DNA of 64,000 nucleotides from a virus, in IMG/VR virus record IMGVR_UViG_3300033153_006744, positions 26,495 to 90,494 of that record; one strand, given 5' to 3'. The notes beneath the pieces were generated by a model that had not been told where the DNA came from, made no database searches, and saw only the letters and a program-made list of their open reading frames with translations. The position numbers were made by a program, and so were the translations under genes. Shown one piece after another: positions 9,396 to 61,840 of the stretch. Positions within the stretch are counted from its first letter, which is position 1; the number at the start of each line of letters is the position of its first letter.

Positions 9396-9426
9396 AACAA
9401 ACCCCTTTGTTTTACTACCCTTTTTT

Positions 9427-18888: not shown

Positions 18889-20475
18889 TTATTTCATTCT
18901 TGCAACTCTTAAAGTAATAAATAGCGCAGGATCACCTAATGCAACTTGAACATCAGCCGTTAACCTACCCTCTCTTAATAAATTAGGTGGATTAAGGTCT
19001 TCACCTACATCTACGATATAAGCTTCGCTAGGTTTTGTGCTTGCAAAGAAACCATCATCCCTATATACATCAACTATATCTTCTATATCTAATTCTATTT
19101 GTTTTAAATCATTTGTAGAAATTGTCTTATGTCTAATGTTTCTGTTTAAAACAGCACCAATCTCTCTTTCAAGTCTAATTAATGTTCTAAGGTTTGCAAC
19201 CCAATCAATGTTTCCAGTCATATCCATTAATTTTTCACCTTCAATAACAGTTGATTCAGCATCACTATCAAAGATTAAGCAATTAACATTATATGGGAAT
19301 AAAGCATCAGTTACTTTTTTATAATTAGCTTCAATTCTTGTAACGCCTTTTATATCTGGATCTTGCAATAATCCATTTATTAATCCAGCTGCATTTTCAC
19401 TAGTTCCGTTTAATAGTTCTCTATCTAATCTAACATATCTACCTAATACATGTGCAGTTGGATCATAATTAATGTTTCCATCAGCATCAGAAGTATAGAC
19501 GTTTGTATCTGGATTAGCTATTTTCAACCAAGGCCAGAAATAAGCTAAATTAAAAGAAAACTCATTATATGTTCCTTGCATTAATGTTTTAGTAGCTGCT
19601 GGTGTAGCTGATGCACTTAAATCTGCAATAGGCATAAATATAGTGCTTTCTCTAACAACTTCTATGTAATTCTTTATCTCTGTTATGCTTGCTATATCTA
19701 AAGCTTCAGGATAAGCTATTGCCGTTACGTCTTCCCCTCTATCAACATATCTAATTCCAGTTATGTTGGTTCCGGCTTCATCGGTATATCCTTTTACATC
19801 ATCGCTATCTAAACTTGTTACCCCATCATCTCCACCAGCTAATGTGTAATCAGCTAAAACAGGAGTATCAACGAGAACATCAGATAAGTCGACACCTTCA
19901 ACAAAGTCATGACCATTAAATTCATCATTAAATTTAGTGAGCCAATAATTTTCTGTATCAGATAACAAGCAGCTTACATTAGCCCATTTTCTAAACCCAC
20001 CGTCAACTGTATCTAAAACAATAATGTTAAAACGATCTGCATCACCATCGTCTGGAGCTTCTAATGTCACCCTAAATCTAACAGGCCAAGTTCCCGCCTC
20101 TTTTCCTTGGAACTTAAATCTAGCAAATGGAGCAACATTTGTATCATCTGCAGTTATTTCACTTACAACATCTGTTGCTGTTGCTGGATCTGTAACATCA
20201 GTATAATGCACTAACTTAACGCCATAACATTTTGTTGGTTTAATTGGACTTGCTTCTTTGAAAAATCTTTCAACATACTTATAAAGCGTTGCGTTTGCAT
20301 GGTGTCCACCATATGCTTTATAGGCCTCATCTAATGTTTTAAATTCTGTTAAATCTAAAGGGCCATACGCTGAAGTTCCAACAAAAACAGGTACGGCGTG
20401 AGATTGCAAAGAATTAAGAGATGTATCTTTTTTGTTTACAATTTTACCTTGTACTTTTGAACCCTTGAATTCCAT
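18889..20475 (-). CDS. Contractile tail sheath protein
   Basis: 'FVGTSAYGP', 'YFWPWLKI', 'AYIVDVGEDLNPP...GRLTADVQVALGDPALFITLRV' sheath C-terminal signature. Confidence 0.93.
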   Translation of the reverse strand: MEFKGSKVQGKIVNKKDTSLNSLQSHAVPVFVGTSAYGPLDLTEFKTLDEAYKAYGGHHANATLYKYVERFFKEASPIKPTKCYGVKLVHYTDVTDPATATDVVSEITADDTNVAPFARFKFQGKEAGTWPVRFRVTLEAPDDGDADRFNIIVLDTVDGGFRKWANVSCLLSDTENYWLTKFNDEFNGHDFVEGVDLSDVLVDTPVLADYTLAGGDDGVTSLDSDDVKGYTDEAGTNITGIRYVDRGEDVTAIAYPEALDIASITEIKNYIEVVRESTIFMPIADLSASATPAATKTLMQGTYNEFSFNLAYFWPWLKIANPDTNVYTSDADGNINYDPTAHVLGRYVRLDRELLNGTSENAAGLINGLLQDPDIKGVTRIEANYKKVTDALFPYNVNCLIFDSDAESTVIEGEKLMDMTGNIDWVANLRTLIRLEREIGAVLNRNIRHKTISTNDLKQIELDIEDIVDVYRDDGFFASTKPSEAYIVDVGEDLNPPNLLREGRLTADVQVALGDPALFITLRVARMK

Positions 20476-20484
20476 TTATTCCTC

Positions 20485-20760
20485 CTATTTGATTACTTTA
20501 AACTCATTTTCTTTAAGTTTAATTTTTAATTTATCTAGAGATCCTATTAAAATTGTTGTCTTATTGTATTCTATCTTTAACATTTTAAAGGATTTATTTT
20601 TAAAGAATCCTGTTGTAATATTATATTCCCATCCATCACCTTCAACTATTTTCATTTCACTTTTAGGTACATTCTTTTTTTCTCTTTCTTTCTTGTCTTT
20701 TTTTTCTTGTTTAGCAAGCTCTTCTTTTATTGTAATTTCCTTTTTCTTTTTTTTAGTCAT
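20485..20760 (-). CDS. Small basic hypothetical protein
   Basis: Coupled ORF between neck and sheath genes; ATG at 20760 has a GGAG RBS. Confidence 0.55.
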   Translation of the reverse strand: MTKKKKKEITIKEELAKQEKKDKKEREKKNVPKSEMKIVEGDGWEYNITTGFFKNKSFKMLKIEYNKTTILIGSLDKLKIKLKENEFKVIK

Positions 20761-21667
20761 CTTTTCTCTCCACATTTAATGTTATATCTGTAATTTCATC
20801 ATAAACATCTTTTATAACTTTATCGTAACTTGTAATAGGAATTCTATATATAATTATATCTAAAGAATCTGAAGGATAATTATCATTTCCAACTGTAAAG
20901 TTATTATATTGCTCTATTTCCCATTCGTAATCAATGTCATCATGATTAAAAGAAGGCATCTTATTTCTTAAATCATATATTATCCTATTCTTTAACCTTA
21001 AAACTATCTGTGGAGATTGAGACCAAAACATTATTCTTAATGTTATATCTTGTAGTCTTTCTCTAGCATTCTTATATAAGTCATTGACCCCCTGAACATC
21101 ATCAGCTGGCAAAAACATCACATCGGCTGGAGTTACGCCAACCAAGCTAACCACAGAGCCAGTATCACTCATTTTGCTTAACTCTTGTCCAGATGTTTCA
21201 CTCATATAATCTTGGCTTCTATATAAAAAAGTTTCATGTAACCAAAATGTTTTTAGTTTCTTTATGAAAGTTTTTATTATATTTTCAACATCACACGCTT
21301 GTTCATTTTCATCAGGCATTTCGTAAGTCCAAGAGTCTGTTTCTGTTACTGTTTCACCTGGTATAGGATCTAAATTGTCATCTAAGTTAGTAATGATTAT
21401 ATCTCCAAGCAAAGGAAACTTAGAAGGAGCACCTTTTTCATCTGTCCATGGGTCAGCATCATAAGCTGGCGTCCATATTCGCAACAAAGCACCATCTTCT
21501 AACACATCAACTCTATCAGCAACAATGCCTTGAAACTTAACTTCAACAACATGTGGATTGCTGCCCACTGCAGCTATTCTGAAATTAGTGCCTATAATAT
21601 AGACAACATCTTTTCCAAATGTAAGTCCAGAAGGTTGTGAAATACTTGTAAAAGTTGGAACAGCCAT
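20753..21667 (-). CDS. Tail terminator/neck protein with N-terminal IPT/TIG-like domain
   Basis: 'PTFTSISQPSGLTFGKDVVYIIGTNF' IPT/TIG start; position upstream of the sheath. Confidence 0.6.
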   Translation of the reverse strand: MAVPTFTSISQPSGLTFGKDVVYIIGTNFRIAAVGSNPHVVEVKFQGIVADRVDVLEDGALLRIWTPAYDADPWTDEKGAPSKFPLLGDIIITNLDDNLDPIPGETVTETDSWTYEMPDENEQACDVENIIKTFIKKLKTFWLHETFLYRSQDYMSETSGQELSKMSDTGSVVSLVGVTPADVMFLPADDVQGVNDLYKNARERLQDITLRIMFWSQSPQIVLRLKNRIIYDLRNKMPSFNHDDIDYEWEIEQYNNFTVGNDNYPSDSLDIIIYRIPITSYDKVIKDVYDEITDITLNVERKDD

Positions 21668-22206
21668 TACCTTAAACCCTTAGCTTTTAAAGCTCTTAAA
21701 GCCTGCGTTGTAAACAAATGCTCTATATTACCTTTCATCTTTCGATAAATAGGGGCAATAAAAGGTCTAGCAGGGATATTTATTATTTTAAATCTGCCAT
21801 CTTCGCCTTTTCTCATAATTGTTTTACCGTGTTCATGAACCCAGGCTATATTAACCATCTTACCTTTTTCGCCATCAGAGTCATATTCTTCATTTCTATG
21901 TATTCCAACAAAAAAAGAGCCTCTTCCTGTACTAGTTAGCCTAATGCTTCTAAGCAATTGCCCATATCTTATTAAAGCTTTGGTTCCCTTAAAGCCCTCT
22001 GCCCTTCTTCTTGCTATTGTTGCTTTAGCTAAGGGTTTAAATCTTTCATTATTGGGGGCTTGACTTCTTATTCCAAGTTTTATTTCTTTTACGGAAAACA
22101 TTGCTAAACGTCTTAACACTAAATGCATAACTGGTTTAGCTTGTTTATATATTGTATTTAAAGCCGTTGACGCCTTATCCCAATCACCAAAAACATTTTT
22201 ACCCAT
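21667..22206 (-). CDS. Virion morphogenesis / tail completion protein (Mu gpG / P2 gpS-like)
   Basis: 'FKPLAKATIARR', 'KALIRYGQLLRSI', 'IAWVHEHG', 'IPARPF' family motifs; start refined to ATG 22206. Confidence 0.85.
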   Translation of the reverse strand: MGKNVFGDWDKASTALNTIYKQAKPVMHLVLRRLAMFSVKEIKLGIRSQAPNNERFKPLAKATIARRRAEGFKGTKALIRYGQLLRSIRLTSTGRGSFFVGIHRNEEYDSDGEKGKMVNIAWVHEHGKTIMRKGEDGRFKIINIPARPFIAPIYRKMKGNIEHLFTTQALRALKAKGLR

Positions 22207-22225
22207 ATTAACCCCCACTTTTTAC

Positions 22226-22254
22226 ATTATGCCAGTGAAATGCTAAAAAGTAAA
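22226..22254 (-). promoter_or_regulatory. Promoter TTTACT-17-CATAAT with TGG extension, restarting the neck/tail operon
   Basis: 17-bp spacing, TGGCATAAT box. Confidence 0.55.
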
Positions 22255-22312
22255 GCAATAATTTAATTAAGTTGTTTTTTTTATTGAATTATATTTAGAA
22301 ATTGTTGTGAGA

Positions 22313-22897
22313 TTATTCTTTTTTGAAAAGTCCAAGTATCTTGCCAGAGTTCTCGTGTAAATACATCGCAAAGCTAGAACTAAGGATTCCTTCCATGAGA
22401 GCAGGTAACACAGCCATACCATTACCAACGCTATATAATATTGTAGCAGTTATACCTAACACAGACACTACTAAAACTTTTATAACAGGTTTTTGTTTAG
22501 ACCAAAATCCGCCAAACGCCTTAAGTCTCAAAATAGATAGCAATAAAAATATTAAAGACCCAATACCTAATAAGTATTTTTTCTCTTTGAATAAATTGTA
22601 TGTCTCCTTGCCATCATCAATAATTTCTTCTTTAGTTGTGTTTTTACTTAGGTCAACATCTTTTAGTTCAGAGCTAACTCCAGCAGCCTTTAATTCATCT
22701 GATTTTTCTTTGTTTTCTTTTTCAACTTCTTTAATATCTTTTGTGATATTAGCAGGAAGTTTCTTTTCAACCTTGGCTTCAATCTCAAGCTCTTTGTTTT
22801 CTAAGATAGGCTTTGGTACACCCTGTGCAAAAACATCAAATGTAAATGCAACAAAAAATACAGTTACAAGTGTCATAAAATAAAAAGTTCTCTTCAT
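22313..22897 (-). CDS. Membrane protein (signal peptide + 3 TM), holin-like candidate
   Basis: N-terminal signal peptide, charged linker, three C-terminal hydrophobic helices, basic C-terminal tail. Confidence 0.55.
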   Translation of the reverse strand: MKRTFYFMTLVTVFFVAFTFDVFAQGVPKPILENKELEIEAKVEKKLPANITKDIKEVEKENKEKSDELKAAGVSSELKDVDLSKNTTKEEIIDDGKETYNLFKEKKYLLGIGSLIFLLLSILRLKAFGGFWSKQKPVIKVLVVSVLGITATILYSVGNGMAVLPALMEGILSSSFAMYLHENSGKILGLFKKE

Positions 22898-22911
22898 TTT
22901 TTTCTCCTAAT

Positions 22912-23325
22912 TTAATTAAATAATTGTTTAACTTCGTCATTTTCTTTTTCGTCAAAGTTAAATATTAGTAAATAGTTATTGTTAATATATAATTCAAAGT
23001 TAAAAATAACATTGTTACGCTTAACTTCTAAATTAAAGCCAAAAACATCAGCCTCGCTTTTGGTAAAGCCTAGTTCGCTTAAGTCTGCTTCTATATCTTG
23101 CAGCCTTAACAGCCTTTCTTTTTCTAGGTTATTAGATCTAGTTGCTTGATCATGTGACATATCTGTCATGCTTTCTGGTTTTGATAGAAAGCCTTTTATT
23201 ATATCTTTGTTATAGCTATATATTAAAAGACATATATTGCCTATTAGTATGTAATTATCTTTTTCTTTAATGTATGCCTTCTTAAGCATGTGTTCTAAGT
23301 TATCAACAGTTCTTTCTTTTGTCAT
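22912..23325 (-). CDS. Hypothetical protein
   Basis: ATG 23325 with GGAG RBS; upstream TTGCTT..TATATA promoter-like sequence. Confidence 0.55.
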   Translation of the reverse strand: MTKERTVDNLEHMLKKAYIKEKDNYILIGNICLLIYSYNKDIIKGFLSKPESMTDMSHDQATRSNNLEKERLLRLQDIEADLSELGFTKSEADVFGFNLEVKRNNVIFNFELYINNNYLLIFNFDEKENDEVKQLFN

Positions 23326-23379
23326 AAAATCTCCGTAAATTAACATTGTATATATAGCATTTGTGCAATAAAAAAGCAA

Positions 23380-24042
23380 TTATTGTTTATCTTTGTGGTT
23401 GTTTAGCCTTATAAATGACAACACAACTAATAATTGCAACTCACTAAACTTAGAAAAAAACATCTTATTGTCATTGTATTTACTTAATCCGAACTTTCCG
23501 ATAACATTAAACTTTATACTTTTGCCACTTATTATTTCAGTTTTTGAGAACTTAAAGGCAATCATTTCCTTAGCTGTTTCATGAATTTCAAGCATATCAT
23601 CAAGATTTATTTTCACAAGCCCTTTGTCAGTGCCAATTGTTATTGAATCTTTATTATAATTAACCTTGCAAAAAAAGAAGAAATGTTTTTTATACGAGAA
23701 ATTAACACCAACCATAAATGGGCTTTTCTCCTTTTTGATTAAATCAAAGAGAACACTCCTGTTTTTAGTTGTTATAAACTCCTTTTCTGTAGCAAAAAAG
23801 TTAACTTGCCTTAATGTTTGGTTTTCTTTTAAGTTTTTGGTTTTAAACAAAGAAGAGCAAGTTAAGCATAATGTTTTTGAGTTATTCTTAAAAATATAGA
23901 AGTCATTAAAGTTAGCTGATACCGTATTCTTTATTAAGTATCCATTACTTACTTCGCAATTACACAATGCGCAGGTTCCTTTTTCTTTTCCATCTTCGTT
24001 TTTAATTATATGTTTATCTAGTATGTTAACTATATCTTTCAT
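23380..24042 (-). CDS. csf1: Type IV CRISPR large subunit Csf1 (Cas8-like)
   Basis: N-terminal Zn finger CALC...CLTC, 'VSANFNDF', 'PFMVGVNFSYKKH', 'FSKTEIISG' match type IV-B Csf1; adjacent to csf3. Confidence 0.75.
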   Translation of the reverse strand: MKDIVNILDKHIIKNEDGKEKGTCALCNCEVSNGYLIKNTVSANFNDFYIFKNNSKTLCLTCSSLFKTKNLKENQTLRQVNFFATEKEFITTKNRSVLFDLIKKEKSPFMVGVNFSYKKHFFFFCKVNYNKDSITIGTDKGLVKINLDDMLEIHETAKEMIAFKFSKTEIISGKSIKFNVIGKFGLSKYNDNKMFFSKFSELQLLVVLSFIRLNNHKDKQ

Positions 24043-24724
24043 TGTTCTCCTTTAGTTGTTTTGGGATTAATATATTTTCTTGATATTCACCTAGCCAATA
24101 TGGCGCACGATAAGACCCATAATCATTTACATAAGAGAAATCTCTATCTTTAAATATGTTATCAGCCATCACCTTAAGTGGCAGTGGTCTAAATAATAAA
24201 TATTTTTGCTCTTCTTTTTCGGCAATCGTAATCTCAAAACTTGAAAACCAACCGAACCCAGCCTTAACTTTTTTCCCAATCCCAACAATATAATCTACTA
24301 GTTCTTTTATCTTGTTTTTATCTCCTATAAAATAAAAAACTATATTATCAACAGAATTTATAACAATAGGCATGTCATAGCTTTTATAATATCCACTACC
24401 TATATTTACCTTTCTTTTGGCTTTTCCAAAATAACTAAGAAAATCATGTCTTGAATTCCATCGTTTCCGCCACTTGTCAATTGATATTTCTTTTTTCTCT
24501 ATTATTCCATAAGAACAAAGATAAAAACCTAATTTGTGTTTTTTTATGGGGATTAATTTTTCTATATTCTTATTTATTTCGGAACCATTCGAGGTTTTAA
24601 TGTCGGTGTTTTTTCTAAAATATTTCTGATAAACTGCATAAGAAATAATGCTGTCAAAAATAGGTATATCTGTATAAGCAATTGGAGATGACATTTTAAA
24701 TTTTATTTTATAAGTTATATCCAT
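24026..24724 (-). CDS. csf3: Type IV CRISPR Csf3 (Cas5-family RAMP)
   Basis: 'FDSIISYA', 'FYLCS', 'GSGYYKSYDMP', 'FYFIGD', G-rich loop 'GIGKKVKAGFG', 'RPLP', 'YRAPYW'. Confidence 0.85.
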   Translation of the reverse strand: MDITYKIKFKMSSPIAYTDIPIFDSIISYAVYQKYFRKNTDIKTSNGSEINKNIEKLIPIKKHKLGFYLCSYGIIEKKEISIDKWRKRWNSRHDFLSYFGKAKRKVNIGSGYYKSYDMPIVINSVDNIVFYFIGDKNKIKELVDYIVGIGKKVKAGFGWFSSFEITIAEKEEQKYLLFRPLPLKVMADNIFKDRDFSYVNDYGSYRAPYWLGEYQENILIPKQLKENNERYS

Positions 24725-25338
24725 GATTTTGAGAACTCCTTATTTCTAAACAAGTTTCCGAGTCCAGTAAATTGCTTTAACCTTAAGACCTCGTCCTTAT
24801 CCATCCCTAGTTGTTCACTTATCTTCTTGTCACTCCAGCCCATAAAATAAAGCTCTTCAACTATTTCACTCATAGATTGTATGCCATGCGTTCCTCTCGC
24901 CCTATTGTGTCTAATTGTACTAGCCATTCTTTCCTTTAAACTTTTTTCTATAACCACTAGTGGCAAATAGCCCTTGGTTCGTGTTTTTATGTCATCATAT
25001 TCCTTTCCAATTCTATTCCTGTGAAATCCATCAACAACAACATACTTATCTTGCTCTTTATCATAAAAAGATACAATTGGTTGAGTATATCCATCTTCTT
25101 TTATTGACCTATATAATAATTGCATTTCTGGAGGTGCAACCTTGTTTGGGTTGTAATTATTAGCCTTAACCCTATCTGCTTTTATCCACAAAACATTGCT
25201 GACTGGCTCTTCTTTAAGTGGGTTAATTTCGTTTAGTTTAGAATAAATGTCATTTAATAATTCTATCTTGTCATCTTGTTTTCTTATCTTCTTTATGTTG
25301 AAAATAAGTTCGTCAACCTTATCTAATAATTCTTTCAT
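24715..25338 (-). CDS. ibrB: IbrB/YbdM-like ParB/Srx-domain protein with C-terminal HTH
   Basis: 'ANNYNPNKVAPPEMQLLYRSIKEDGYTQPIV', 'VVDGFHR', 'STIRHNRARGTH', 'LGMDKDEVLRLKQ'. Confidence 0.85.
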   Translation of the reverse strand: MKELLDKVDELIFNIKKIRKQDDKIELLNDIYSKLNEINPLKEEPVSNVLWIKADRVKANNYNPNKVAPPEMQLLYRSIKEDGYTQPIVSFYDKEQDKYVVVDGFHRNRIGKEYDDIKTRTKGYLPLVVIEKSLKERMASTIRHNRARGTHGIQSMSEIVEELYFMGWSDKKISEQLGMDKDEVLRLKQFTGLGNLFRNKEFSKSWI

Positions 25339-26552
25339 TCTCCTAGCTCCTCTTTCATTTTATAATATTTTTCGTATTGATTTTTAGTTTGACCAAACGA
25401 CAAACTTTTACAGATTTTATCGTTCTTTAATATAACTTTAGCAAGCCTCCGCCATGATGGAGCCTTTTTAGAGCTTTCAAGTTTTTTGTCTGCTTCATCT
25501 GGAATTCCATCTGGATAACCATTTTTAGACCACCACCGAATAAATATCTTGAATTTTTGCCCATACCACTCTGCTTCAAATTTTGGAAGAGTTGCCATTA
25601 GAAAATTAACATAACTTTCCCATGTGTGATTTTTTGGCAATATTACCTTGTTGTTTCCTAATAAAAAGCTTTTGCAATATATGTTGCCAAAATTAGCTCC
25701 AGACACTCTATCAACAATTCTAGACCACGTTTCAGGTTCACACTGTCTAAATAAATTAAGACCTTTTCTTTGGTCATCTCCGTATGGCTGACATATTCTT
25801 GCTTCATGTATTGATAACCCCTGCATGTACATGAAATCATAAATTTTATTGTATGTATAGCTCTCGTTTCCAACAGAAACCCATATATCTTTAGTCTTCC
25901 AGTCATAAATAGGGTAAAAATTAAAAACATTCTCAACAATTTGAGTTGTCCACATTTTATCTTTATATATTTTTTTCTTCGTATTTTTAATGGTTCTATA
26001 TCTATTTAAACTTTCATCTGATCTTATTCCAACTCCACAGGCAATTTTTTCTTTTCCAACTTTGAACCACTCTGCAAACCTAACAACTAATTCTTCAAAC
26101 TCTATTCCTCTATGAAACCATTTCTCCCATTCTTTGGGCATGTTATTTTCGTTTATAACATATTTTGAATTAGGCATCGGCCTAACCCATTTATCTTCAT
26201 TTTCTTTATCCCAACAAATCCATTGTGGCTGGTAAACACTTACTGCATTTCTTAAATTTAAAGGCAAGCATAGCCAATAACCATCAATATCTTTATTGTT
26301 GAAAATTTCTTCAACATGCTTTATTGTAGACTTATACTGAGCCTCTAAGTCAATGAAAAGTATTTTTATTGGTATTTTGTTCTTTTTTTTCGCAATTTCA
26401 AGTGCTAGTTGAACCATTACACTAGAGTCTTTTCCGCCAGAAAAAGAAAAGCAAATCTCATCTTTGTCAAAGTTGTCAAAAATAAAATTAAGTCTTTCTA
26501 TTGCCTTGTCCCAAACATTTACTTTTGAATATGTTTTTGATTCACTGTTCAT
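25335..26552 (-). CDS. ibrA: IbrA/YbdN-like PAPS-reductase-family protein (DUF3440)
   Basis: PP-loop 'SFSGGKDS', 'DLEAQY', 'GIRSDESLNRY', 'YPIYDWKTKDIW', 'RICQPYGDDQ', 'PSWRRLAKVILKND'. Confidence 0.88.
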   Translation of the reverse strand: MNSESKTYSKVNVWDKAIERLNFIFDNFDKDEICFSFSGGKDSSVMVQLALEIAKKKNKIPIKILFIDLEAQYKSTIKHVEEIFNNKDIDGYWLCLPLNLRNAVSVYQPQWICWDKENEDKWVRPMPNSKYVINENNMPKEWEKWFHRGIEFEELVVRFAEWFKVGKEKIACGVGIRSDESLNRYRTIKNTKKKIYKDKMWTTQIVENVFNFYPIYDWKTKDIWVSVGNESYTYNKIYDFMYMQGLSIHEARICQPYGDDQRKGLNLFRQCEPETWSRIVDRVSGANFGNIYCKSFLLGNNKVILPKNHTWESYVNFLMATLPKFEAEWYGQKFKIFIRWWSKNGYPDGIPDEADKKLESSKKAPSWRRLAKVILKNDKICKSLSFGQTKNQYEKYYKMKEELGE

Positions 26553-26573
26553 TCTACCTCCTTAGTTACTTAC

Positions 26574-26602
26574 ACTGTAACACATTTTAAACTAAATGTC
26601 AA
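26574..26602 (-). promoter_or_regulatory. Internal promoter TTGACA-17-TACAGT (extended TG) for ibrA-ibrB-csf3-csf1
   Basis: Perfect -35 box, 17-bp spacer similar to the other early promoters, AAGGAGG RBS downstream. Confidence 0.7.
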
Positions 26603-27361
26603 CTATGTATATGCTTTTATTTCTGGATGAAAACTTAACATGAGATTGTATTGTTTTTTATAGTAATACTTTAACCATGAAAACTGACCTATTGTTGCAG
26701 CCGTTGGATCTACAAACCAAGATATTCTTATTTTAGCTGGATCATCTGTAAATCTTGTTTTATTATATGCCGGGTGTAGCAATTTATCTAATTTTCTACT
26801 GTAAATATATGCAAAAACATCATCCCCAGTTAAATCACAAATCGGATAAAACTGATATATCTTATTTTTCTTAGAATAAAATAATTTACCCATATGTTTT
26901 ATTAAATTTTCCCTTCTTTTGCTTTCTTCTTTTCTTATCCCAATCAAGGCAATTTTATAATCATTGTCCTGTTGGAAGTTTCTAATGGGCGTCATCATTG
27001 CCTTTTCAAACGCATAATTCTTGCACCCAGCATCATAAAAAGCCTTCTTTTTTGCATATTCATCTAGTATGTCAATTGGGGATTTTACTACATTTATTGT
27101 CTTATTGTGGTGTTTTTCCGCTAGTTTTATAATTCCGTAGCTCTCGGGTAGCTCATACCAAGAATCATGAAACATTATGTCTAAATTAGGGTTTGCCTCT
27201 AATGCAATATCTAGCATTACTAAACTATCCTTGCCAGTGCTATATGAAATAGAACCCTTTGTATTTCTTGTTTCTTTTTCAATAGAGCTCTTAACCAGCT
27301 CTATTTTTCCCTTAAACTCGTCTAGCTCTGCATACAACAAATAATATTCTTTATTTTTCAT
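26603..27361 (-). CDS. cysH: CysH-like PAPS-reductase-family protein (type IV-B associated)
   Basis: PP-loop 'SYSTGKDS', 'IGIRKEESKRR', 'YPICDLTGDDVFAYI', 'LHPAY'; overlaps the csf2 stop; start refined to ATG 27361. Confidence 0.85.
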   Translation of the reverse strand: MKNKEYYLLYAELDEFKGKIELVKSSIEKETRNTKGSISYSTGKDSLVMLDIALEANPNLDIMFHDSWYELPESYGIIKLAEKHHNKTINVVKSPIDILDEYAKKKAFYDAGCKNYAFEKAMMTPIRNFQQDNDYKIALIGIRKEESKRRENLIKHMGKLFYSKKNKIYQFYPICDLTGDDVFAYIYSRKLDKLLHPAYNKTRFTDDPAKIRISWFVDPTAATIGQFSWLKYYYKKQYNLMLSFHPEIKAYT

Positions 27362-28550
27362 TTTCTTTAACTCCAATAAAAGCTAGGATATCTTTTTTGT
27401 TTTTCTCTATATGCCTTAAGTATAAATTATTTGCATTTTCAGGAATTGTCAACTCTGACAAATCTATTTCAGATGAACCAGTTGCAAACATTCCGCCAAT
27501 AAACGGATTTTCTTTAAAAAGAATTAATGCATGCCAGAAGGCCGAAACAGATAATTCATTAAAATCCATCATTCTAAAGCCATGATTGAACTGAGTTCCT
27601 TTTGCAAAAACTTCATATTCATACTTCATATGAGTTGGGTTTTCATCTTTTTTGTCTTTTATCGCCTTTATTGATATATTCTTTTCATCTTTAGAGCTAT
27701 CTTTTCTGCTTTGAAAAATCATGTCCAAGTAAGACCAGAATGAGTTAATTCCTGTTTTCAACTCCACGCATTTAGGATATGCAAAACCAACAGATAATTG
27801 ACCTTCTATTGTCATGTTGCCTATTGCACTGCCAAAAACACCAAGCATTGGAATGCTATCTATTAGCTTTTCTCTTTTTTCTAAGTCCTCATATAGGGTA
27901 GACTCGGTCAAGGCTCCGCCAGTAAACAAAATATGATATAATTGTTTATCTATTTTTTTACATCCAACTCTTTTTAAGAAATCATACATCGCTAATCTTC
28001 TTAAGACGCCCCTAATGCTATTTCCAGATATACAAGGAATCAGCTCAAATGTTTTATTGTATGTTTTAAGTTTCTCTTTTTTTACATCTAATTTATGGTC
28101 TTTATCCTTGCTCTTCATTCTTAATAAAACAGTTATAGTGTGAGCCTCATCTCTAACTTTTGACAAAAACTCAACATCTGTTATTTGTTGTAGATAATTG
28201 AATGTTTTATCTTTTAAATCAGGCATTCTAACACCACATAAATCTGCAAATACTTCAAAAAATTGGAATCTATTTGAAGATGTTGCAGACCTTTTAATTT
28301 TTGAATATAGCTCATCCCATATTCCCATTAATCTCTTTCCTTTTATTTTGCTAAAGTCTATCTTAGAGTATATACTATAACAAACATCAACAATGATATT
28401 TCTAACATCATCATCTGAAAACGAGGTTAAAAAGTTCTCGTTTTTAACCATTATTTTCTGTCTCCTAAGCAGCTTTGTTGTTCCGTCTGTCTTATCGGAA
28501 CCCGTGTGAAGGAATGTTGTTCCAGTGAAATTGTAGTCAACTTTAATCAT
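27351..28550 (-). CDS. csf2: Type IV CRISPR backbone Csf2 (Cas7) with ~125-aa helical insertion
   Basis: 'LHTG...LLRRQKI', 'IPCISGNSIRGVLRR', 'LFTGGAL', 'PMLGVFGSA...IEGQLSVG', 'MKYEYEVFAKGT', 'IGGMFATG'. Confidence 0.88.
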   Translation of the reverse strand: MIKVDYNFTGTTFLHTGSDKTDGTTKLLRRQKIMVKNENFLTSFSDDDVRNIIVDVCYSIYSKIDFSKIKGKRLMGIWDELYSKIKRSATSSNRFQFFEVFADLCGVRMPDLKDKTFNYLQQITDVEFLSKVRDEAHTITVLLRMKSKDKDHKLDVKKEKLKTYNKTFELIPCISGNSIRGVLRRLAMYDFLKRVGCKKIDKQLYHILFTGGALTESTLYEDLEKREKLIDSIPMLGVFGSAIGNMTIEGQLSVGFAYPKCVELKTGINSFWSYLDMIFQSRKDSSKDEKNISIKAIKDKKDENPTHMKYEYEVFAKGTQFNHGFRMMDFNELSVSAFWHALILFKENPFIGGMFATGSSEIDLSELTIPENANNLYLRHIEKNKKDILAFIGVKENEK

Positions 28551-28605
28551 GTTTACTCCTTATTTAAGTTTAAGCATTGGGCTAATGCCTTTTGATTTTC
28601 CTATA

Positions 28606-29034
28606 CTATTCTTTTAAAAAGTTTAAATGTGCATTCATTGCAAATCTTGAGCTAAAAGAAGTTTTATCTTTATTTATTTTGCCTAATTCGTTTACCCTTG
28701 CAACAGTAAGAATAAAATTAGAGTTAGATTTTCTAAATTTATTAAAATAAAAAACCTCTTCGGTTTCGTCATTTTTGAACATATGGAATTCTTCCTGTAA
28801 TCTTTCTAGCTCAGTTTTTTTAGACAATATTTTTAACAAGAAAATTCCGTCCTCTTTTAAAACAAGTTCAACGTTAAATTTGTCTTCTAGTTCTTCTTTC
28901 TCTACTCTAGTACATTCAGCTGCAATGCACTCAAATTTTTTAGCATTATTACTTAGAACAACTAAATCTTTGTTAGCTTTAAATATAGTTAAGTTTTTAA
29001 AGTTTTTTCTAATTTCATTATATAATTTTTTCAT
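28606..29034 (-). CDS. Hypothetical protein, first gene of the csf operon
   Basis: AAGGAG RBS; directly under the 29.1 kb promoter cassette. Confidence 0.65.
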   Translation of the reverse strand: MKKLYNEIRKNFKNLTIFKANKDLVVLSNNAKKFECIAAECTRVEKEELEDKFNVELVLKEDGIFLLKILSKKTELERLQEEFHMFKNDETEEVFYFNKFRKSNSNFILTVARVNELGKINKDKTSFSSRFAMNAHLNFLKE

Positions 29035-29059
29035 CTTAATCTCCTTTATTAATTTCTTT

Positions 29060-29119
29060 AGTTAAGACCCTTTCTTAACTCTATACATACATTATAATGC
29101 ATTTAAGAATAAATGTCAA
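29060..29119 (-). promoter_or_regulatory. Promoter + leader stem-loop cassette 1 (TTGACA-17-TATAAT; AGTTAAGA-AAGGG-TCTTAACT)
   Basis: Consensus sigma70 boxes and a perfect 8-bp hairpin; one of six copies. Confidence 0.85.
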
Positions 29120-29197
29120 GCGAAAAGTAAATATAATTTAAGATAAAACAAAATCATGCGTAAGCTATTGTTATGATGCATTAAATGAAGTGATTTT

Positions 29198-29677
29198 TTA
29201 CGCTATGTCTTTTTTATTGAAAGATATTTCGACTAAGTTTCGTGTTGGATTAACAATGTCTATGCCAAAACCTGCATCAGATATATGCATTACAAATAAT
29301 TCAATTGTGCCAAAAGTTTTAACTGTTCTGCCAAACTTATCCTCTATTCTAACAAGCCTATCACCTATTCTTAAATCTATATTGTTGTCTGAATTAAGCA
29401 ACCCAGCCATTTCTATATCTCTATAGTGATGCAACAACATTAACATAGGCTTTATTTCTTGCCCTTTGTCCGTTATGATTGTTTTTTTAGGATTTTCATA
29501 AATCTGGCATCGCATCTTTATTTCTTCAGCTTCTTCAATTGTTTTAAATTTGGCAAGCCTACCGTCGTCAACCAATACAGGAGTTCCAAGCATAGGGTCA
29601 ACATTAGCAGTGTCATATTCAGTTTCATCTACTCTTTTATAAACAGCTTTGAATTGAAATATTAAGTCACCACGCAT
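29198..29677 (-). CDS. Head closure / head-tail joining protein
   Basis: 'LRIGDRLVRIED' beta-rich stopper-like protein following the adaptor gene. Confidence 0.6.
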   Translation of the reverse strand: MRGDLIFQFKAVYKRVDETEYDTANVDPMLGTPVLVDDGRLAKFKTIEEAEEIKMRCQIYENPKKTIITDKGQEIKPMLMLLHHYRDIEMAGLLNSDNNIDLRIGDRLVRIEDKFGRTVKTFGTIELFVMHISDAGFGIDIVNPTRNLVEISFNKKDIA

Positions 29678-29678
29678 G

Positions 29679-30641
29679 TCAACACACCCTTGGAGGAGTC
29701 ATATATTTACCTAAGATAGCGTCAATAACCAGGTCTCCAGTGAAAACAGAAACATCTTCAGTATTATATTCAACTTCTTGGTCTTTAGTTTTCATTCTTT
29801 TCACATAACCAGTAACAATCTCATCATCTAAAACAGAAAATAGTTTACTCATTAATGTTAACCTGAGACAAGCTCTTTTAATCTGAGAAGGAATTAAACC
29901 CCAGGGAGCGCTACCCTCTTGAACTACCCCAAAAATTCCCTCAATAGATATTCGCTTGTAATTTTCTAGGTCAACATTATAGATTTCTATTTCTAATATT
30001 CTTCTAGCATCAGTTAGTCCAATTAGATTTAAATTATGAACTATTGCATCTTCATCATCAAAGAGAGCCTTAGAGTTGTCGTCATCCCAGAACTGACTAA
30101 TAAAAATACATGGATAATTTAAAAATAAAGTATTATAATCGCTTTCTATGTTGTCATAGATTAAATGTCTAGCTCCAAAAAACCAGCCTGTAATCTGCTC
30201 TATTTCTTGCATAGAAGCCTTAATTCCATCTAATATCTGTTGATTAGTTAAAGTTGTTGTTGGTATCTCAGCTTTTATATCCAAAACACCGCAATAAGCA
30301 TTTTCAACATTTTCATCTATGTCATCTAAAACTTCAAAGTATTCAAATTTTGTTCTAATATTATCAGGCCTATACTTATCTCCAACGCTATCAAGAAATT
30401 TATATGTATATATTATTTTGTATTTTCCTTCAGTAGCTGGAGCAGTAAAAGGTATCTGATATATATAGTCAGCTATTTCAGAACTTGTTAAAATAACTGG
30501 TGTCTCAGCAATAACTTCTGTTCCTGCTGAATCTTCTACCTTAAAGCTTAAATAATCAAGCTCTGGTCTTGTCCCTCCAGAAAGGACAGGACAAAACCAA
30601 AACATATCTGTTGTAGCTGTATCAGATTTAATAATTCTCAT
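29679..30641 (-). CDS. Head-tail adaptor protein
   Basis: 'AYCGVLDIKAE', 'IEQITGWFF', 'IPSQIKRACLRL', 'TGDLVIDAILGKY' are gp6/gp15-like adaptor motifs. Confidence 0.75.
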   Translation of the reverse strand: MRIIKSDTATTDMFWFCPVLSGGTRPELDYLSFKVEDSAGTEVIAETPVILTSSEIADYIYQIPFTAPATEGKYKIIYTYKFLDSVGDKYRPDNIRTKFEYFEVLDDIDENVENAYCGVLDIKAEIPTTTLTNQQILDGIKASMQEIEQITGWFFGARHLIYDNIESDYNTLFLNYPCIFISQFWDDDNSKALFDDEDAIVHNLNLIGLTDARRILEIEIYNVDLENYKRISIEGIFGVVQEGSAPWGLIPSQIKRACLRLTLMSKLFSVLDDEIVTGYVKRMKTKDQEVEYNTEDVSVFTGDLVIDAILGKYMTPPRVC

Positions 30642-30644
30642 TTT

Positions 30645-31148
30645 TTATTCCATTAAGTCAGCTAAGAATTTAGAACCTTCAATGCTATCACCCATTTTTC
30701 TTTGTCTTTTCATTCTTGTTTGGTCAAAGAACCCAACATCTAAGCTATTAACATCAACAGGATCTTTATCCCTAAGCTCTAAGCTTTGATTTTGTTTCCT
30801 AAGAACTTCTTCAACTGTAAATGCAAAGTCAAAGAATTGATCTACATATGCTCCTGTGCCTATTTTCTTGTTCTTAAGCTCTTCTTCATAGAACCACTTA
30901 GGAATCTTATACCATTTAGGCAAAGCACCAGTAAGCAAGTCAGAACCCCTAAAAATAACAGCTCCAGATCTCATCCACCTTTGGAAAGGATAACGAATCG
31001 GATCATAAACTTTCATTCTACAGAAATACACTTCTTTTTTAGGAAGCTTCTTTTCTTCTGCTTTTGTAACTTTCATTTCTCTTTTTACTTTTACTTCAGC
31101 AACAGCTTTTTTAACTTCTTTCACTGTTTTTTTTCTAGCTCTAGCCAT
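30645..31148 (-). CDS. Hypothetical protein downstream of the capsid gene
   Basis: AGGAG RBS; basic N-terminus. Confidence 0.65.
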   Translation of the reverse strand: MARARKKTVKEVKKAVAEVKVKREMKVTKAEEKKLPKKEVYFCRMKVYDPIRYPFQRWMRSGAVIFRGSDLLTGALPKWYKIPKWFYEEELKNKKIGTGAYVDQFFDFAFTVEEVLRKQNQSLELRDKDPVDVNSLDVGFFDQTRMKRQRKMGDSIEGSKFLADLME

Positions 31149-31160
31149 GTTAACTCCTAT

Positions 31161-32132
31161 TTATATTGTAACTCCATCAATTAAAACATTAGCTGGTTCT
31201 TCATTTAATTGCAAGTCTAATTTATATCTAGCAACAATTTTAAATGTTCCAGTATCAATGTCTTTGTCTGTTTCAACTGTAATGTTTTTCAAAATACCCA
31301 AGAAACAATTCATTTTATTTAATAAAACAACATCTGTTTCTGTTCCACCACCAAGCGTAATAGGCATATAATCAGATTGAATAACAGGAATACCATTGAT
31401 AATCATGCCATCAACACCTTTTAACAATGTAGCGTCGCCAAGTTGTGTTTCTCTTCCTTGCATTTCAGTCATATTTGTTAATTTAGTTCTTGCAGACTGG
31501 ATATAAAGTAAGTCTTGAGGTTTTAGATATTTTGGATCTAACAACTTTAAGATATTAGCATGTTCTTCTAAATCGAAATCAGCTATTGTTCCAGTGTTTG
31601 TTGTTATGATTTTCCTTAAACCATCCATAGTTTTTAACAATAGATAATCTGGATGCCCAGGATCTGTTGCAGTGTCACCATTAAGAATTAAATTATCAAT
31701 ATCTCTAGCAATGGCTTCAATAAGTTGATTTGTAACTGTTGTAATAAATCCATCTTTTTCAATGTTTTCTTCTATGTCTTCATAAGATAGAAATGTTGTT
31801 GCTCTTAATCTTTTTACATTAAATGTAACCTTTGATAAAGATGGTGATCTTCTGTTAGAAGACGTTGACCCTGTATATTCCTCATCTTCAACTGACACTG
31901 AACCAGTAAAACCCATTACAGGTATAGATTGTGTAATTGCCTTTAACGGAATAGTTCTAATCATTTTAGCTAAAACTGTTTTCTCAACTATTTTAGCCAT
32001 AAATTTTTGTAAATTATCTTGTTTAATTTCTCCACCAGCTGTTTCAATGTCACCAATTGACAAGTCAGCTTTCGTAACGAAATGTCCATTAATTAACTCA
32101 TTTGCTTTTGCTATCAAAACTTCTCTATTCAT
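31161..32132 (-). CDS. Major capsid protein (HK97 fold, XkdG-like)
   Basis: 'LSYEDIEENIEKDGF', 'AIARDIDNLILNGD', 'LLKTMDGLRK', 'RETQLGDATL', 'INGIPV'. Confidence 0.92.
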   Translation of the reverse strand: MNREVLIAKANELINGHFVTKADLSIGDIETAGGEIKQDNLQKFMAKIVEKTVLAKMIRTIPLKAITQSIPVMGFTGSVSVEDEEYTGSTSSNRRSPSLSKVTFNVKRLRATTFLSYEDIEENIEKDGFITTVTNQLIEAIARDIDNLILNGDTATDPGHPDYLLLKTMDGLRKIITTNTGTIADFDLEEHANILKLLDPKYLKPQDLLYIQSARTKLTNMTEMQGRETQLGDATLLKGVDGMIINGIPVIQSDYMPITLGGGTETDVVLLNKMNCFLGILKNITVETDKDIDTGTFKIVARYKLDLQLNEEPANVLIDGVTI

Positions 32133-32167
32133 AACCTTCCTCCTACTAATAAACCCTATTAATAATA

Positions 32168-32920
32168 TTAACCCTTATATTCGTCGCCTAAAATTTGCGG
32201 TAAATGATCACCAATACTCATTGTTCCCGTCATAATAAATCCTTCACTTTCTTTTTTTGCAACTACATTTTTTTTATCAACAGGAGCTGCGTTATCAGCT
32301 TTGCTTAATGCTGAAGGATTAGATTTTGTTAAATCAATTTTCTTGCTTAATTCTTCATTTTGTTTAGTTAAAGCTTCAATTTTTTCTTTTAATTCTGCTT
32401 TTTCTTTGTCTTCTTCCGTCTTTACAACAGGAGCAACCGTTTTTTCGTCTTTTTCTTTCAATTCGTCAAAGTTTTTAAGTAACCCGTCAATCTTTTCATT
32501 CATCATTTTAAATGCTACTTCAGGGTCAAAAGCTTTAGGTTCAGTTTCTGCTTTTACTGCAACATCAGCCTTAGGTTTATCTAATGCACCTTCTAGCTCT
32601 TTAATCATGCCATGTACAGCATCAACAGCGTTCTCTTTTTTGTCATCTATAACTTTCTCAATGTTTGCTTTTGTTAAAACTTCTTTTGCAAGACCTAGTG
32701 CTTGTGCAAATTCAATTTCAGTTCCTTTATTTTCTTTAAAGTCTTTAAAGGCTTTTTGCAACGCTTTCGCTGCATTATCTAACATGTTTTCAAAAAAACT
32801 ATCTTTGGGCTCAGTTCCTTTGTCACCTTTTACAAGTGCAAAATTTTCTCCATTAGCTCCTTTATCTACAAAAGAAACTTCAAGACCCAACAATTTCATT
32901 AACTCTTTAAAGTTTTCCAT
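32168..32920 (-). CDS. Capsid scaffolding protein with N-terminal protease-derived strand
   Basis: Lys/Glu/Ala coiled coil before the capsid gene; begins 'LEVSFVDKGAN...FALVK'. Confidence 0.7.
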   Translation of the reverse strand: MENFKELMKLLGLEVSFVDKGANGENFALVKGDKGTEPKDSFFENMLDNAAKALQKAFKDFKENKGTEIEFAQALGLAKEVLTKANIEKVIDDKKENAVDAVHGMIKELEGALDKPKADVAVKAETEPKAFDPEVAFKMMNEKIDGLLKNFDELKEKDEKTVAPVVKTEEDKEKAELKEKIEALTKQNEELSKKIDLTKSNPSALSKADNAAPVDKKNVVAKKESEGFIMTGTMSIGDHLPQILGDEYKG

Positions 32921-32929
32921 TTCTTACTC

Positions 32930-37761: not shown

Positions 37762-38457
37762 TTAATAACCTGTTTGCTTGTTTTGGATATGGAGTGCATT
37801 TAAATAGTCAAAAATAAGATGCATATTTCTGTCACTTAGTTCTTTTTCTTTTCTTACATCTTGAGCTAATGTTGTTATGCTTTCCGCTAATGATTCAGGT
37901 ACTTGCTTCATGCCTAAGCTATCGAATAATTCTTTTATTGATACCCAACCTTCGTCATGTGGGTATTTTTTGCCTTGCTCTCTTGATGCTTCATTGTCTT
38001 CAATTTGGTTGGCGTCATTTGAATATTGGTCAATGCTGAAGCCATCTATTAATGAATCTAAATTATTAAGTTGTTCTGAGCTATAGGGCATTGTTTCCAG
38101 TAACTCATCTGTATCAAACTCTTTCTGTAACTCACTTATTATATCTACTAACTTGTTTTTATCACTTTTAAACCTAGTCTCGTTGGTCTCAATGGCTATT
38201 CTTTTGGCTTGGTTTTCCGTAATATTGCCTAAATTATAGCACATAACTTTATCATAGTTTAGTTCATTAAGAACATCTAACCTATGGTTGCCATTAACCA
38301 TTTCATAGGAATCTTCTTCTAACTCCCTAACTATGACACTTTCAATGAATCCATTTCTAATGATGTTTGATTTAAGCTTTGACCTTAATTCTTCATTGTC
38401 TTCTTTATAATTCCATTCAGCTTTAATTATTTTATTCAACTCAATTTCTTTAAACAT
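37762..38457 (-). CDS. ParB/Srx N-terminal domain protein
   Basis: 'WNYKE', 'NGFIESVIVRE', 'MVNGNHRL'; start refined to ATG 38457. Confidence 0.8.
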   Translation of the reverse strand: MFKEIELNKIIKAEWNYKEDNEELRSKLKSNIIRNGFIESVIVRELEEDSYEMVNGNHRLDVLNELNYDKVMCYNLGNITENQAKRIAIETNETRFKSDKNKLVDIISELQKEFDTDELLETMPYSSEQLNNLDSLIDGFSIDQYSNDANQIEDNEASREQGKKYPHDEGWVSIKELFDSLGMKQVPESLAESITTLAQDVRKEKELSDRNMHLIFDYLNALHIQNKQTGY

Positions 38458-38458
38458 T

Positions 38459-61322: not shown

Positions 61323-61436
61323 TTTGTTTCTAGTTTCTCTTAATGTTTTAGCTCTATCCTTTATGAATTTCTCTTTTTCTTCTTTTGTTAAACTATCATA
61401 ATATTCAGTTAAACTGTGAGACTTAAAACTTAAATG
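61323..61436. repeat. 114-bp exact direct repeat, copy 1
   Basis: Identical to 63887-64000. Confidence 0.9.
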
Positions 61437-61549
61437 TTTTTATTGTTTTCACATCTCACCTCCACGGGTAACACATCAATTTTGTCCTAACCATATATTG
61501 TGTTATTTATAAAATTATAAAACGCCATCAACGTGTTACCCTATATAGA

Positions 61550-61780: not shown

Positions 61781-61799
61781 AATTACCTCCTTAATAAAA

Positions 61800-61831: not shown

Positions 61832-61840
61832 GATTAAAAA

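Follow-up and report, generated by a model that had tools for sequence, protein, structure and literature searches.

A phage operon assigned to array-less CRISPR-Cas type IV-B and its ibrA-ibrB gene pair, a recurrent neighbour of csf genes

The operon, its products and its setting

A string of genes occupies the minus strand between positions 22912 and 29119 of a 64,000-nucleotide stretch of viral DNA (hereafter the window, i.e. bases 26495-90494 of the 90,494-bp IMG/VR virus record IMGVR_UViG_3300033153_006744), in the order orf142, csf2, cysH-like, ibrA, ibrB, csf3, csf1 and orf155. Very probably, this is a phage-borne type IV-B CRISPR-Cas module that has no array and consists of Csf1, Csf3, a Csf2 with a built-in Cas11 domain and a CysH-like protein devoid of conserved cysteine, with the ibrA-ibrB pair (ibrAB) lodged inside it. 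What is new is the finding that this pair is a recurrent neighbour of type IV-B genes. The original prediction, made from the letters of the window, had listed seven minus-strand open reading frames (ORFs); all seven are where it placed them, and an eighth, orf155, comes directly after. Four of the seven junctions overlap (csf2/cysH-like by 26 nt, ibrA/ibrB by 4 nt, ibrB/csf3 by 10 nt and csf3/csf1 by 17 nt), csf1 and orf155 abut (0 nt), and gaps separate orf142 from csf2 (55 nt) and the cysH-like gene from ibrA (50 nt).

The proteins of 399, 232 and 220 residues were confirmed as RAMP/Csf proteins, since the PADLOC profiles for Csf2, Csf3 and Csf1 match all three: csf2 (Cas7; 27351..28550, minus strand) is matched by Csf2_0_IV (1.3e-49, residues 157-392), csf3 (Cas5; 24026..24724, minus strand) by Csf3_0_IV (9.2e-38) and csf1, which encodes a small Cas8-like protein (23380..24042, minus strand), by Csf1_0_IV (8.9e-27). 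The NCBIfam csf equivalog models also match, below their curated cut-offs (3.6e-22 for cas5_csf3 on Csf3). Csf1 contains two CxxC pairs, CALC at residue 24 and CLTC at residue 59. The AlphaFold model of Csf2, obtained with a 39-row alignment (predicted local distance difference test, pLDDT, 86.8; predicted template modelling score 0.83), has type IV Csf2 chains as its top Foldseek matches (7xg0_E, 7.7e-10; 7jhy_a of the IV-B complex, 4.2e-08), and the best solved relatives found with the sequence profile are Cas7c (11fs_C, 4.9e-15) and the Csf2 of 7jhy (1e-10).

Residues 46-148 of Csf2 (28107..28415, minus strand) constitute a Cas11-like helical insert (PADLOC Cas11_1_IV, 9.6e-08, residues 55-164). 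In an ordinary Csf2, the strand ending in LRRQ ('LRRQK') is followed after 10-20 residues by the motif 'IPxISGNxIRG', whereas about 135 helical residues lie between the two motifs in the protein of the window, with model helices at 46-148; Cas11 is thus an insertion in Csf2 and not a head-to-tail fusion. Used as a jackhmmer query on the 86 Csf2-seeded loci described in the next section, residues 40-165 retrieved separate cas11 ORFs upstream of csf2 in 57 loci (105-250 residues, most of them 105-156); the domain lies within a Csf2 of 371-434 residues in 27 loci and is missing from two, the contig of one of which starts at csf2. The fused state needs two changes on the Csf2-core tree and, on this sequence evidence, may have had a single origin. 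The type IV variant list in PMC8175902 includes a csf1-csf3 fusion and none with cas11, no literature search having been aimed at Cas11 insertion.

The cysH-like gene (26603..27376, minus strand; 257 residues; Pfam PAPS_reduct, 2.4e-18) encodes the PP-loop enzyme CasCysH. Its homologues are the cysH-like genes of other csf loci, and in 67 csf-linked sequences, that of the window included, the PP-loop residues S46, G48, K49, D50 and S51 are conserved and R148, E151 and R155 are also kept. The 3′-phosphoadenosine-5′-phosphosulfate (PAPS) reductases proper use a catalytic C-terminal cysteine. Across the 67 CysH-like sequences there is no conserved cysteine, the protein of the window having Cys118 and Cys180 only, and its score against the NCBIfam CysH model (52.7 bits for a cut-off of 154) is, as with every CysH model, below the cut-off. 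Judged by its residues and scores, the protein does not, strictly speaking, qualify as a PAPS reductase, a view also expressed in PMC8175902. Sulfur transfer, one of the activities originally envisaged for the operon, is consequently unlikely for the CysH-like protein, which has no conserved cysteine in 67 sequences and lies far below the cut-off of the DndC models; identification of either PP-loop enzyme as DndC is rejected as well, TIGR03183 giving 22.8 bits for the CysH-like protein and 30.4 bits for IbrA against a cut-off of 290.4.

The product of ibrA (25335..26552, minus strand; 405 residues; phrog_2302, 8.3e-92) combines a PP-loop domain of PAPS-reductase fold (PAPS_reduct, 1.6e-13) with a DUF3440 domain (1.1e-37). 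In 70 sequences the PP-loop residues S38, G40, K41, D42 and S43 are invariant, and C254 is kept in at least 90% of them. The IbrA model (pLDDT 91.1) is closest to the PAPS domain of human flavin adenine dinucleotide (FAD) synthase (Z 16.2, root mean square deviation 3.1, 170 aligned) and next to adenosine-5′-phosphosulfate (APS)/PAPS reductases (Z 14-15) and CysD (Z 14.7), the C-terminal DUF3440 domain being barely covered by fold matches. Several enzymes in this list catalyse the formation or cleavage of an adenylyl-phosphate or adenylyl-sulfate bond. The ibrB gene (24715..25338, minus strand; 207 residues; phrog_2159, 1e-73) specifies a ParB/Srx-type N-terminal domain followed by a helix-turn-helix-like tail. 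Pfam ParB_N scores 23.8 bits (4.8e-05), below its cut-off of 26.3; in 63 sequences N60, N63, P64 and N65, then D103, G104, H106 and R107, are invariant within the motifs NxYNPN and DGFHR. A close solved relative was found for none of the CysH-like, IbrA and IbrB proteins. Profile matches for these three nevertheless bear out the claim that the operon holds two different PP-loop enzymes together with a ParB-type protein. Named phages have IbrA proteins 38-50% identical to this one (e.g. Chlorobiaceae phage CV-1-33, Streptococcus phage CHPC1230 and Escherichia phage PhiR5_2). Database names of homologues include 'co-activator of prophage gene expression', and the role of ibrAB in E. coli, going by annotation names, is activation of prophage gene expression.

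The absence of an array, noted from the start for the window, now extends to the record: the window has no tandem array, no 18-mer occurs in three copies spaced as in an array anywhere in the 90,494 bp, no short-range direct repeats of note occur in 20000-33000, no Rfam family reaches its gathering score, and the whole record has no Pfam match to Cas1, Cas2 or DEAD_2 (DinG). Pfam domain searches of the record likewise gave no DinG-type or SNF2 helicase domain (RecD itself was not searched for) and no GNAT domain, and searches with the eight operon proteins in Pfam, NCBIfam and PADLOC brought no nuclease family, a result that is not an exhaustive nuclease check of the record. The statement that an RNA-processing gene is lacking holds for the operon and has to be qualified for the phage because of an orphan ORF located 11 kb away. 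ORF192 (39852-40430, minus strand; 192 residues), which heads an operon containing a ParB-methyltransferase gene, resembles Cas6 by ESM Atlas features (0.93, 191 shared features) and by its Atlas model (TM 0.70-0.73 with Cas6 clusters). Neither Pfam nor PADLOC gives a Cas6 match for it; a search of 1.8 billion representatives brought up a single homologue, and the 166 csf or ibrA loci contain none.

The record, whose completeness is estimated at 74% by CheckV, has nearly all its genes on the minus strand. Upstream of the csf cassette are genes for the major head protein (phrog_1623, 7.9e-52), a protease and the portal, and downstream those for a neck protein and the tail sheath; the cassette is thus an accessory island within the structural region of a tailed phage. 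Together with the PADLOC profiles and the fold, these head and tail neighbours substantiate the view that a genuine array-less type IV-B effector operon resides on a phage. The record has two PAPS_reduct genes only, both in the csf operon, and three ParB-type proteins, IbrB included. At 38459-39859 (minus strand) a ParB_N domain is fused to an N6/N4 DNA methylase (phrog_498, 2.6e-72), and a second ParB_N protein is encoded after it at 37762-38478 (minus strand). The record also has an exact 101-bp direct terminal repeat, and its last 2.7 kb (genome 87817-90494, window 61323-64000) imperfectly repeat, with identity in blocks, its first 2.9 kb (genome 1-2933), which could be a long diverged terminal repeat or two variants assembled together.

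The string is headed by a promoter-like site, P1 (29091..29119, minus strand; TTGACA, 17 nt, TATAAT), the sole 12/12 consensus match in 22000-29400, the consensus being of host type. After P1 come a leader hairpin (29060..29080, minus strand; 8-bp stem, AAGGG loop), a Shine-Dalgarno sequence and orf142. With P1 and its hairpin counted, the minus strand of the phage has 10 near-identical cassettes of this build, the same stem-loop lying 3′ of the promoter in the sister cassettes. These are found at window positions 29119, 44644, 46032, 52858, 57607 and 62202 and, before the window, at genome positions 836, 8116, 14987 and 20566; each is made of TTGACATT..., a -10 box, an 8-9-bp hairpin whose loop is AAAGG or AAGGG and a ribosome-binding site, and paired base changes distinguish some of the stems. 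The 50-nt gap in front of ibrA is filled by an internal promoter-like site (26574..26602, minus strand; TTGACA, 17 nt, TACAGT with TG; 10/12), a consensus match only, whose spacer is similar to that of the phage's own cassette promoters. The ibrA-ibrB pair has a promoter-like site to itself and, by its sequence, forms a self-contained phage module of two genes. Promoter-like sites of this kind would presumably be read by the host polymerase early in infection. The membership of the two outermost ORFs is uncertain: orf142 (28606..29034, minus strand), the first after P1, and orf155 (22912..23379, minus strand) belong to no known family, have no match in Pfam, NCBIfam, PADLOC or PHROG and no homologue in the 166 csf or ibrA loci. 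Among 5.8 billion clusters orf142 matches itself alone; orf155 contains a terminator-like hairpin at 23063-23039.

Recurrence of ibrAB beside csf genes

The survey was seeded with the Csf2 alignment, which gave 86 loci (80 viral loci and six from bacterial metagenome-assembled genomes); ORFs were called in each locus and classed by iterated profile searches started from the proteins of the window. A reverse search was made with the IbrA alignment, and the best 80 of at least 299 viral loci were considered. Full-length ibrA, with its DUF3440 domain, and ibrB were found inside or beside csf genes in 14 of the 86 Csf2-seeded loci (L009, L015, L019, L020, L032, L033, L037, L038, L041, L051, L057, L064, L065 and L074), and two further csf-linked loci were brought by the reverse search (L088 and L134), which makes 16 out of 88. 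The eventuality, envisaged at the outset, that ibrAB would never stand beside csf genes in relatives can therefore be dismissed: the pair is carried by 16 of 88 csf loci, through several independent events. Some of the linked loci are near-copies of each other (L032/33/37, L038/41 and L057/64/65), and both clades, the Cas11-inserted and the ordinary one, are represented.

In all 16 linked loci the labelled genes lie on the same strand. Six gene orders are observed: cysH-ibrA-ibrB-csf3, which is that of the window, csf2-ibrA-ibrB-cysH-csf3, csf3-ibrA-ibrB-cysH, csf3-ibrB-ibrA-cysH, csf3-cysH-ibrA-ibrB and ibrA-ibrB-csf1. In 11 of the 16 loci the pair and cysH are immediate neighbours, and the start or stop codons of the pair overlap those of csf2, csf3 or cysH in L019, L051, L074 and L134, as they overlap those of csf3 in the window. 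Since cysH is kept in every one of the 15 loci with csf, ibrAB and a complete context (L033 ends before cysH), ibrAB adds to CysH, in the sampled loci, rather than replacing it. A tandem duplicate of csf3 (239 residues plus 233-236 residues), with ibrA-ibrB upstream of csf1, is found in L057, L064 and L065. In L011, a locus without ibrA, a 58-residue ibrB remnant (9236-9412) lies between csf2 and cysH and is 58% identical to residues 171-206 of IbrB; from its sequence, it looks like the trace of a past loss of ibrAB.

Seen from the other side, ibrB accompanies ibrA in all of the 80 best viral IbrA loci while csf genes are present in two only, L088 (the best match overall) and L134, from which it follows that ibrAB is a common free-standing module captured by IV-B loci. 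As a background, IbrA matches were counted in cultured phages, where 219 of 50,697 records (0.43%) have one, 121 of the 219 covering at least 80% of the protein, and in plasmids (724 of 72,556 records). Set against the cultured-phage rate, 16 out of 88 corresponds to an odds ratio of 51 (Fisher p 3e-21), a rough figure that compares unmatched collections and ignores kinship. The only Csf2 match in the 50,697 cultured-phage records is a gene of Skermania phage SPI1 (KR011061.1 33851-34747; 21.6% identity, 4e-11) annotated as 'hypothetical'.

Plasmids also provide examples, 66 plasmid records having a Csf2 relative. On a Halomontanus rarus plasmid (L168, NZ_CP135527.1 55662-61781), the RefSeq annotation gives in a row a Csf2 relative and then AbrB-type, DUF3440, ParB-family, GNAT and PAPS-reductase-family genes, and the Natrinema thermotolerans plasmid CP031299.1 has entries among both the Csf2 and the IbrA matches, about 2 kb separating the two genes. 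As far as sequence matches go, the combination of csf2, DUF3440, ParB and PAPS-reductase genes crosses the domains of life. A Rhodococcus plasmid with a Csf2 relative has no ibrAB-type genes nearby.

Two trees bear on the number of times the association was formed. The IbrA tree, a quick search on 93 rows (16 csf-linked, including the window, and 77 free), requires seven linkage changes, at least five of which are forced by branches with a Shimodaira-Hasegawa-like approximate likelihood ratio test value of at least 95, and contains one deep clade of eight rows that is wholly csf-linked. The Csf2-core tree, built on 73 unique rows after 16 were dropped (six duplicates, and 10 that failed the motif anchor or were short), requires 10 changes, at least seven of them forced, which is close to the shuffled mean of 12.2. 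The closest Csf relatives of the window (L003, L082, L005 and L002, with Csf2 48-54% identical) are without ibrAB, and its closest IbrA and IbrB (54% and 55%, respectively) are those of L088, a csf locus whose Csf2 is 26% identical; hence the two histories disagree for this phage. Taken together, these trees and identities indicate that the pairing of ibrAB with IV-B arose several times independently.

The genes that accompany ibrAB differ with its situation. A DNA-methylase-like gene is found in 9 of the 16 csf-linked loci, as against 0 of 78 free-standing ibrAB loci and 0 of 72 loci with csf only; the match of this companion is weak (Pfam N6_N4_Mtase, 1.1e-05). For GNAT genes the corresponding numbers are 5 of 16, 8 of 78 and 0 of 72, and for SNF2/ResIII helicases 0 of 16, 17 of 78 and 4 of 72. 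NinG is also common beside free-standing pairs. The idea that, in the ibrAB cassette, csf genes take the place of the SNF2 helicase was not retained, the difference between 0 of 16 and 17 of 78 being suggestive only (Fisher p 0.067). An unnamed family of about 136 residues follows ibrB immediately in 31 of the 78 free-standing loci (e.g. L142:5484-5894 and L154:4506-5654) and is fused to IbrB in some; this is the count of a BLAST cluster, the jackhmmer count of 54 of 78 being inflated by IbrB-fused proteins. The family has no Pfam or PHROG match, and its assignment to GNAT was ruled out (hhalign probability 0.2). As to the position of the csf cassettes themselves, a gene for the terminase large subunit is found no more than 3 kb away in 15 of the 88 loci (e.g. 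L014, L022, L023, L026, L028 and L030) and a portal gene in five, which shows a preference of the cassette for the part of phage genomes devoted to packaging and structure.

Possible function and rival explanations

The explanation that we favour as a whole, with a probability of roughly 0.55, is that of a IV-B module to which ibrAB is functionally joined. Since the pairing has arisen several times independently, ibrAB and IV-B most likely act in one pathway, and the functional link taken by itself we regard, from the gene arrangements, as probable. Several points weigh against this explanation. The pair needs no Csf complex, being free-standing in 78 of the 80 best viral IbrA loci, although these are only the 80 closest to the IbrA of the window, and the Csf complex in turn can do without IbrAB, which is missing from 72 of 88 csf loci. 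The enrichment sets fragments from IMG/VR against cultured phages, the count of 16 is inflated by near-duplicate loci, and each tree comes from a quick search without bootstrap. Unrelated cargo also accumulates in the accessory-gene hot spots where csf cassettes are located, and the promoter-like site of ibrAB is what would be expected of an independent insert. Finally, no result points to the class of the substrate, be it DNA, RNA, protein or a small molecule.

Most of these points converge on the rival explanation that survives best, in which ibrAB, as an unrelated element of selfish or auxiliary nature, has inserted at a point where the csf operon tolerates it, and each module works on its own. 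The free-standing state of 78 of the 80 best IbrA loci, the promoter-like site before ibrA, the absence of ibrAB from the closest Csf relatives, its variable position in the operon and the location of csf cassettes in accessory hot spots near terminase or portal genes would all be accounted for. However, chance insertion sits badly with a frequency of 16 in 88 csf loci compared to 0.43% of cultured-phage records, with labelled genes on one strand in 16 of 16 loci, with the start/stop overlaps that bind the pair to csf3 in the window and to csf2, csf3 or cysH in L019, L051, L074 and L134, with at least five to seven independent linkage changes and with the recurrence in haloarchaeal plasmids. 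We therefore hold it to be unlikely.

If ibrAB is indeed joined to the IV-B module, a chain of events can be put forward, tentatively, for what the ensemble does. The host polymerase would transcribe the cassette from the start of infection. Csf2 with its built-in Cas11, Csf3 and Csf1 would assemble on RNA without a dedicated guide, in the manner of the solved Mycobacterium IV-B complex, and the resulting filament would serve as a nucleic-acid-bound platform for adenylate-forming enzymes. IbrB, with its ParB/Srx fold and helix-turn-helix-like tail, would supply the contact with DNA, and IbrA and the CysH-like protein would, at the expense of ATP, place an adenylyl group or another mark on a phosphate or base in the DNA or the bound RNA. 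The phage would profit from the outcome when in conflict with the defences of its host or with rival elements. The intact PP-loops of both enzymes speak for such a scheme, as does the predicted fold of IbrA, the nearest neighbours of which are adenylyl-transfer enzymes; the company of ibrAB is DNA-related (methylase-like genes in 9 of 16 linked loci, SNF2 and NinG beside free pairs). One may speculate further, and this we consider doubtful, that IV-B in general is not an immune effector, and that it would be an RNA-scaffolded platform placing CasCysH, plus IbrA and IbrB in about a fifth of the sampled loci, on DNA. There a covalent mark would be written or backbone phosphates activated, IbrAB being an interchangeable unit that provides a DNA contact plus a second enzyme, and phages and plasmids would use the system for marking themselves or for disabling host defences.

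A guide-less Csf filament could alternatively act as an RNA sponge or anti-CRISPR device, soaking up host crRNAs (CRISPR RNAs) or small RNAs that the PP-loop enzymes would modify or seal. That neither an array nor adaptation genes were found in the phage record would fit, as would the consensus host-type promoter and the loading of non-specific RNA by IV-B complexes described in PMC7937560. PMC7038947 considers the idea and judges it unlikely, objecting to the complexity of such systems for an inhibitor, which would be very high with an eight-gene string; moreover, the companions of ibrAB are DNA-related (methylase-like, SNF2, ParB/helix-turn-helix). We rate this possibility a little below that of a chance insertion. 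It is rather improbable that the operon serves for control of gene expression, with IbrA and IbrB co-activating phage or prophage genes and the Csf complex providing an RNA- or DNA-bound targeting akin to CRISPR interference, as in type IV-A. Such a role is suggested by homologue names like 'co-activator of prophage gene expression', by the helix-turn-helix-like tail of IbrB and by the transcriptional repression through which type IV-A works, according to the introduction of PMC13676074; it leaves two intact ATP-pyrophosphatase sites that a pure regulator does not explain, it lacks a known source of guides, and the E. coli role of ibrAB is one given by annotation only. Least likely of all is a self-supply of guides, in which ORF192, Cas6-like by language-model features (0.93) and structure (TM 0.70-0.73), would cut hairpin-containing phage transcripts such as the ten conserved promoter leaders, one of which heads the csf operon, and load the products onto the Csf complex, since, even if 12 IV-B loci with Cas6 are mentioned in PMC7038947, ORF192 with its single homologue in 1.8 billion representatives and none in 166 loci is not a conserved partner, its own leader hairpin differs, and the hairpins are kilobases apart beside transcript starts, so that cleaved leaders would fall far short of the 55-60 nt that the RNAs measure in the solved complex.

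A functional union of ibrAB with the IV-B module would be of consequence because type IV-B is the one widespread CRISPR-Cas subtype without known function, for which the pairing offers a testable lead. The repeated recruitment of a second enzyme pair, mostly adjoining cysH, narrows the search to ATP-dependent nucleic-acid chemistry with a DNA-binding partner. The phage cassette, a compact string of eight ORFs behind a host-type promoter, is clonable, and its built-in Cas11 sets the Cas7:Cas11 ratio at 1:1, which should make reconstitution simpler.

Comparison with known systems

IV-B modules with cysH on plasmids, prophages and some viruses are already in print, and the CysH-like gene has been singled out as a key to the subtype (PMC8175902, PMC7038947, PMC7937560). 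PMC13676074, published in 2026, presents type IV-B as still without known function and CasCysH as a protein proposed to AMPylate substrates or make a signal molecule, its function being still unclear. No publication was found that names ibrAB, ParB-type or DUF3440 genes among the partners of IV-B, although supplementary tables (e.g. of PMC7038947 or the Shmakov preprint) could list such neighbours; no paper on DUF3440 concerns CRISPR by its title or abstract, and a search combining IbrA, IbrB and CRISPR returned none on type IV. The 'IbrA/B CRISPR/Cas system' of a glacial virome (PMC4490671), which concerns one scaffold, is described there as type I-E with arrays and is not relevant.

Among systems that act on DNA in defence contexts, Dnd/Ssp phosphorothioation (DndC, SspD) and type 4 BREX (BrxP) have enzymes with the same PAPS-reductase-fold PP-loop as the two phage enzymes, and weak profile matches of the operon enzymes to them were recorded (BrxP, 1.8e-14; SspD, 2.2e-05; DndC, 4e-10). 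Unlike these systems, the phage operon has no cysteine desulfurase or other partner family among its proteins. The IbrA/IbrB pairs of phages and prophages (phrog_2302 and phrog_2159) are much closer: the two-domain IbrA is the same, IbrB has all the family-invariant residues, and the genes are adjacent and overlapping. However, free-standing pairs occur in replication or nin-type regions with SNF2 helicases, NinG or GNAT genes, while that of the window is a bare pair inside a Cas operon. The haloarchaeal plasmids (Halomontanus rarus plasmid unnamed5 and Natrinema CP031299.1) share with the phage a Csf2 relative that has DUF3440, ParB-family and PAPS-reductase-family proteins within 2-3 kb; they differ by their archaeal plasmid carrier, by a cas11 that is apparently separate and by the inclusion of GNAT and AbrB-type genes, and no published account of the plasmid locus was found.

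Another virus-encoded IV-B is that of Fuxivirus, among the viruses of Bathyarchaeia, in which a CysH-like gene lies beside Csf3 and for which a part in counter-defence or inter-element conflict was proposed (PMC10848311). It differs by having a mini-array and Cas4, and the wording of the main text contains neither ParB nor PAPS. The best point of reference remains the IV-B system of Mycobacterium sp. JS623 (7JHY, PMC7937560), described as a Csf2 filament and a Cas11 filament on heterogeneous RNA of 55-60 nt, with Csf1 and Csf3 not resolved. Both loci comprise Csf1, Csf2, Csf3, Cas11 and a CysH-like protein, both reside on a mobile element without array, adaptation genes, helicase or nuclease, and the phage Csf2 matches that of 7JHY in sequence and fold. 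The differences are in the carrier, a tailed phage here and an actinobacterial megaplasmid for JS623, in Cas11, which is a domain inserted in the phage Csf2 and the product of a separate gene in JS623, and in the presence of ibrA-ibrB between cysH and csf3 in the phage order csf2-cysH-...-csf3-csf1. As the core csf1, csf2 and csf3, Cas11 in the form of a domain and the cysH-like gene are all present, we assign the phage locus with considerable confidence to subtype IV-B.

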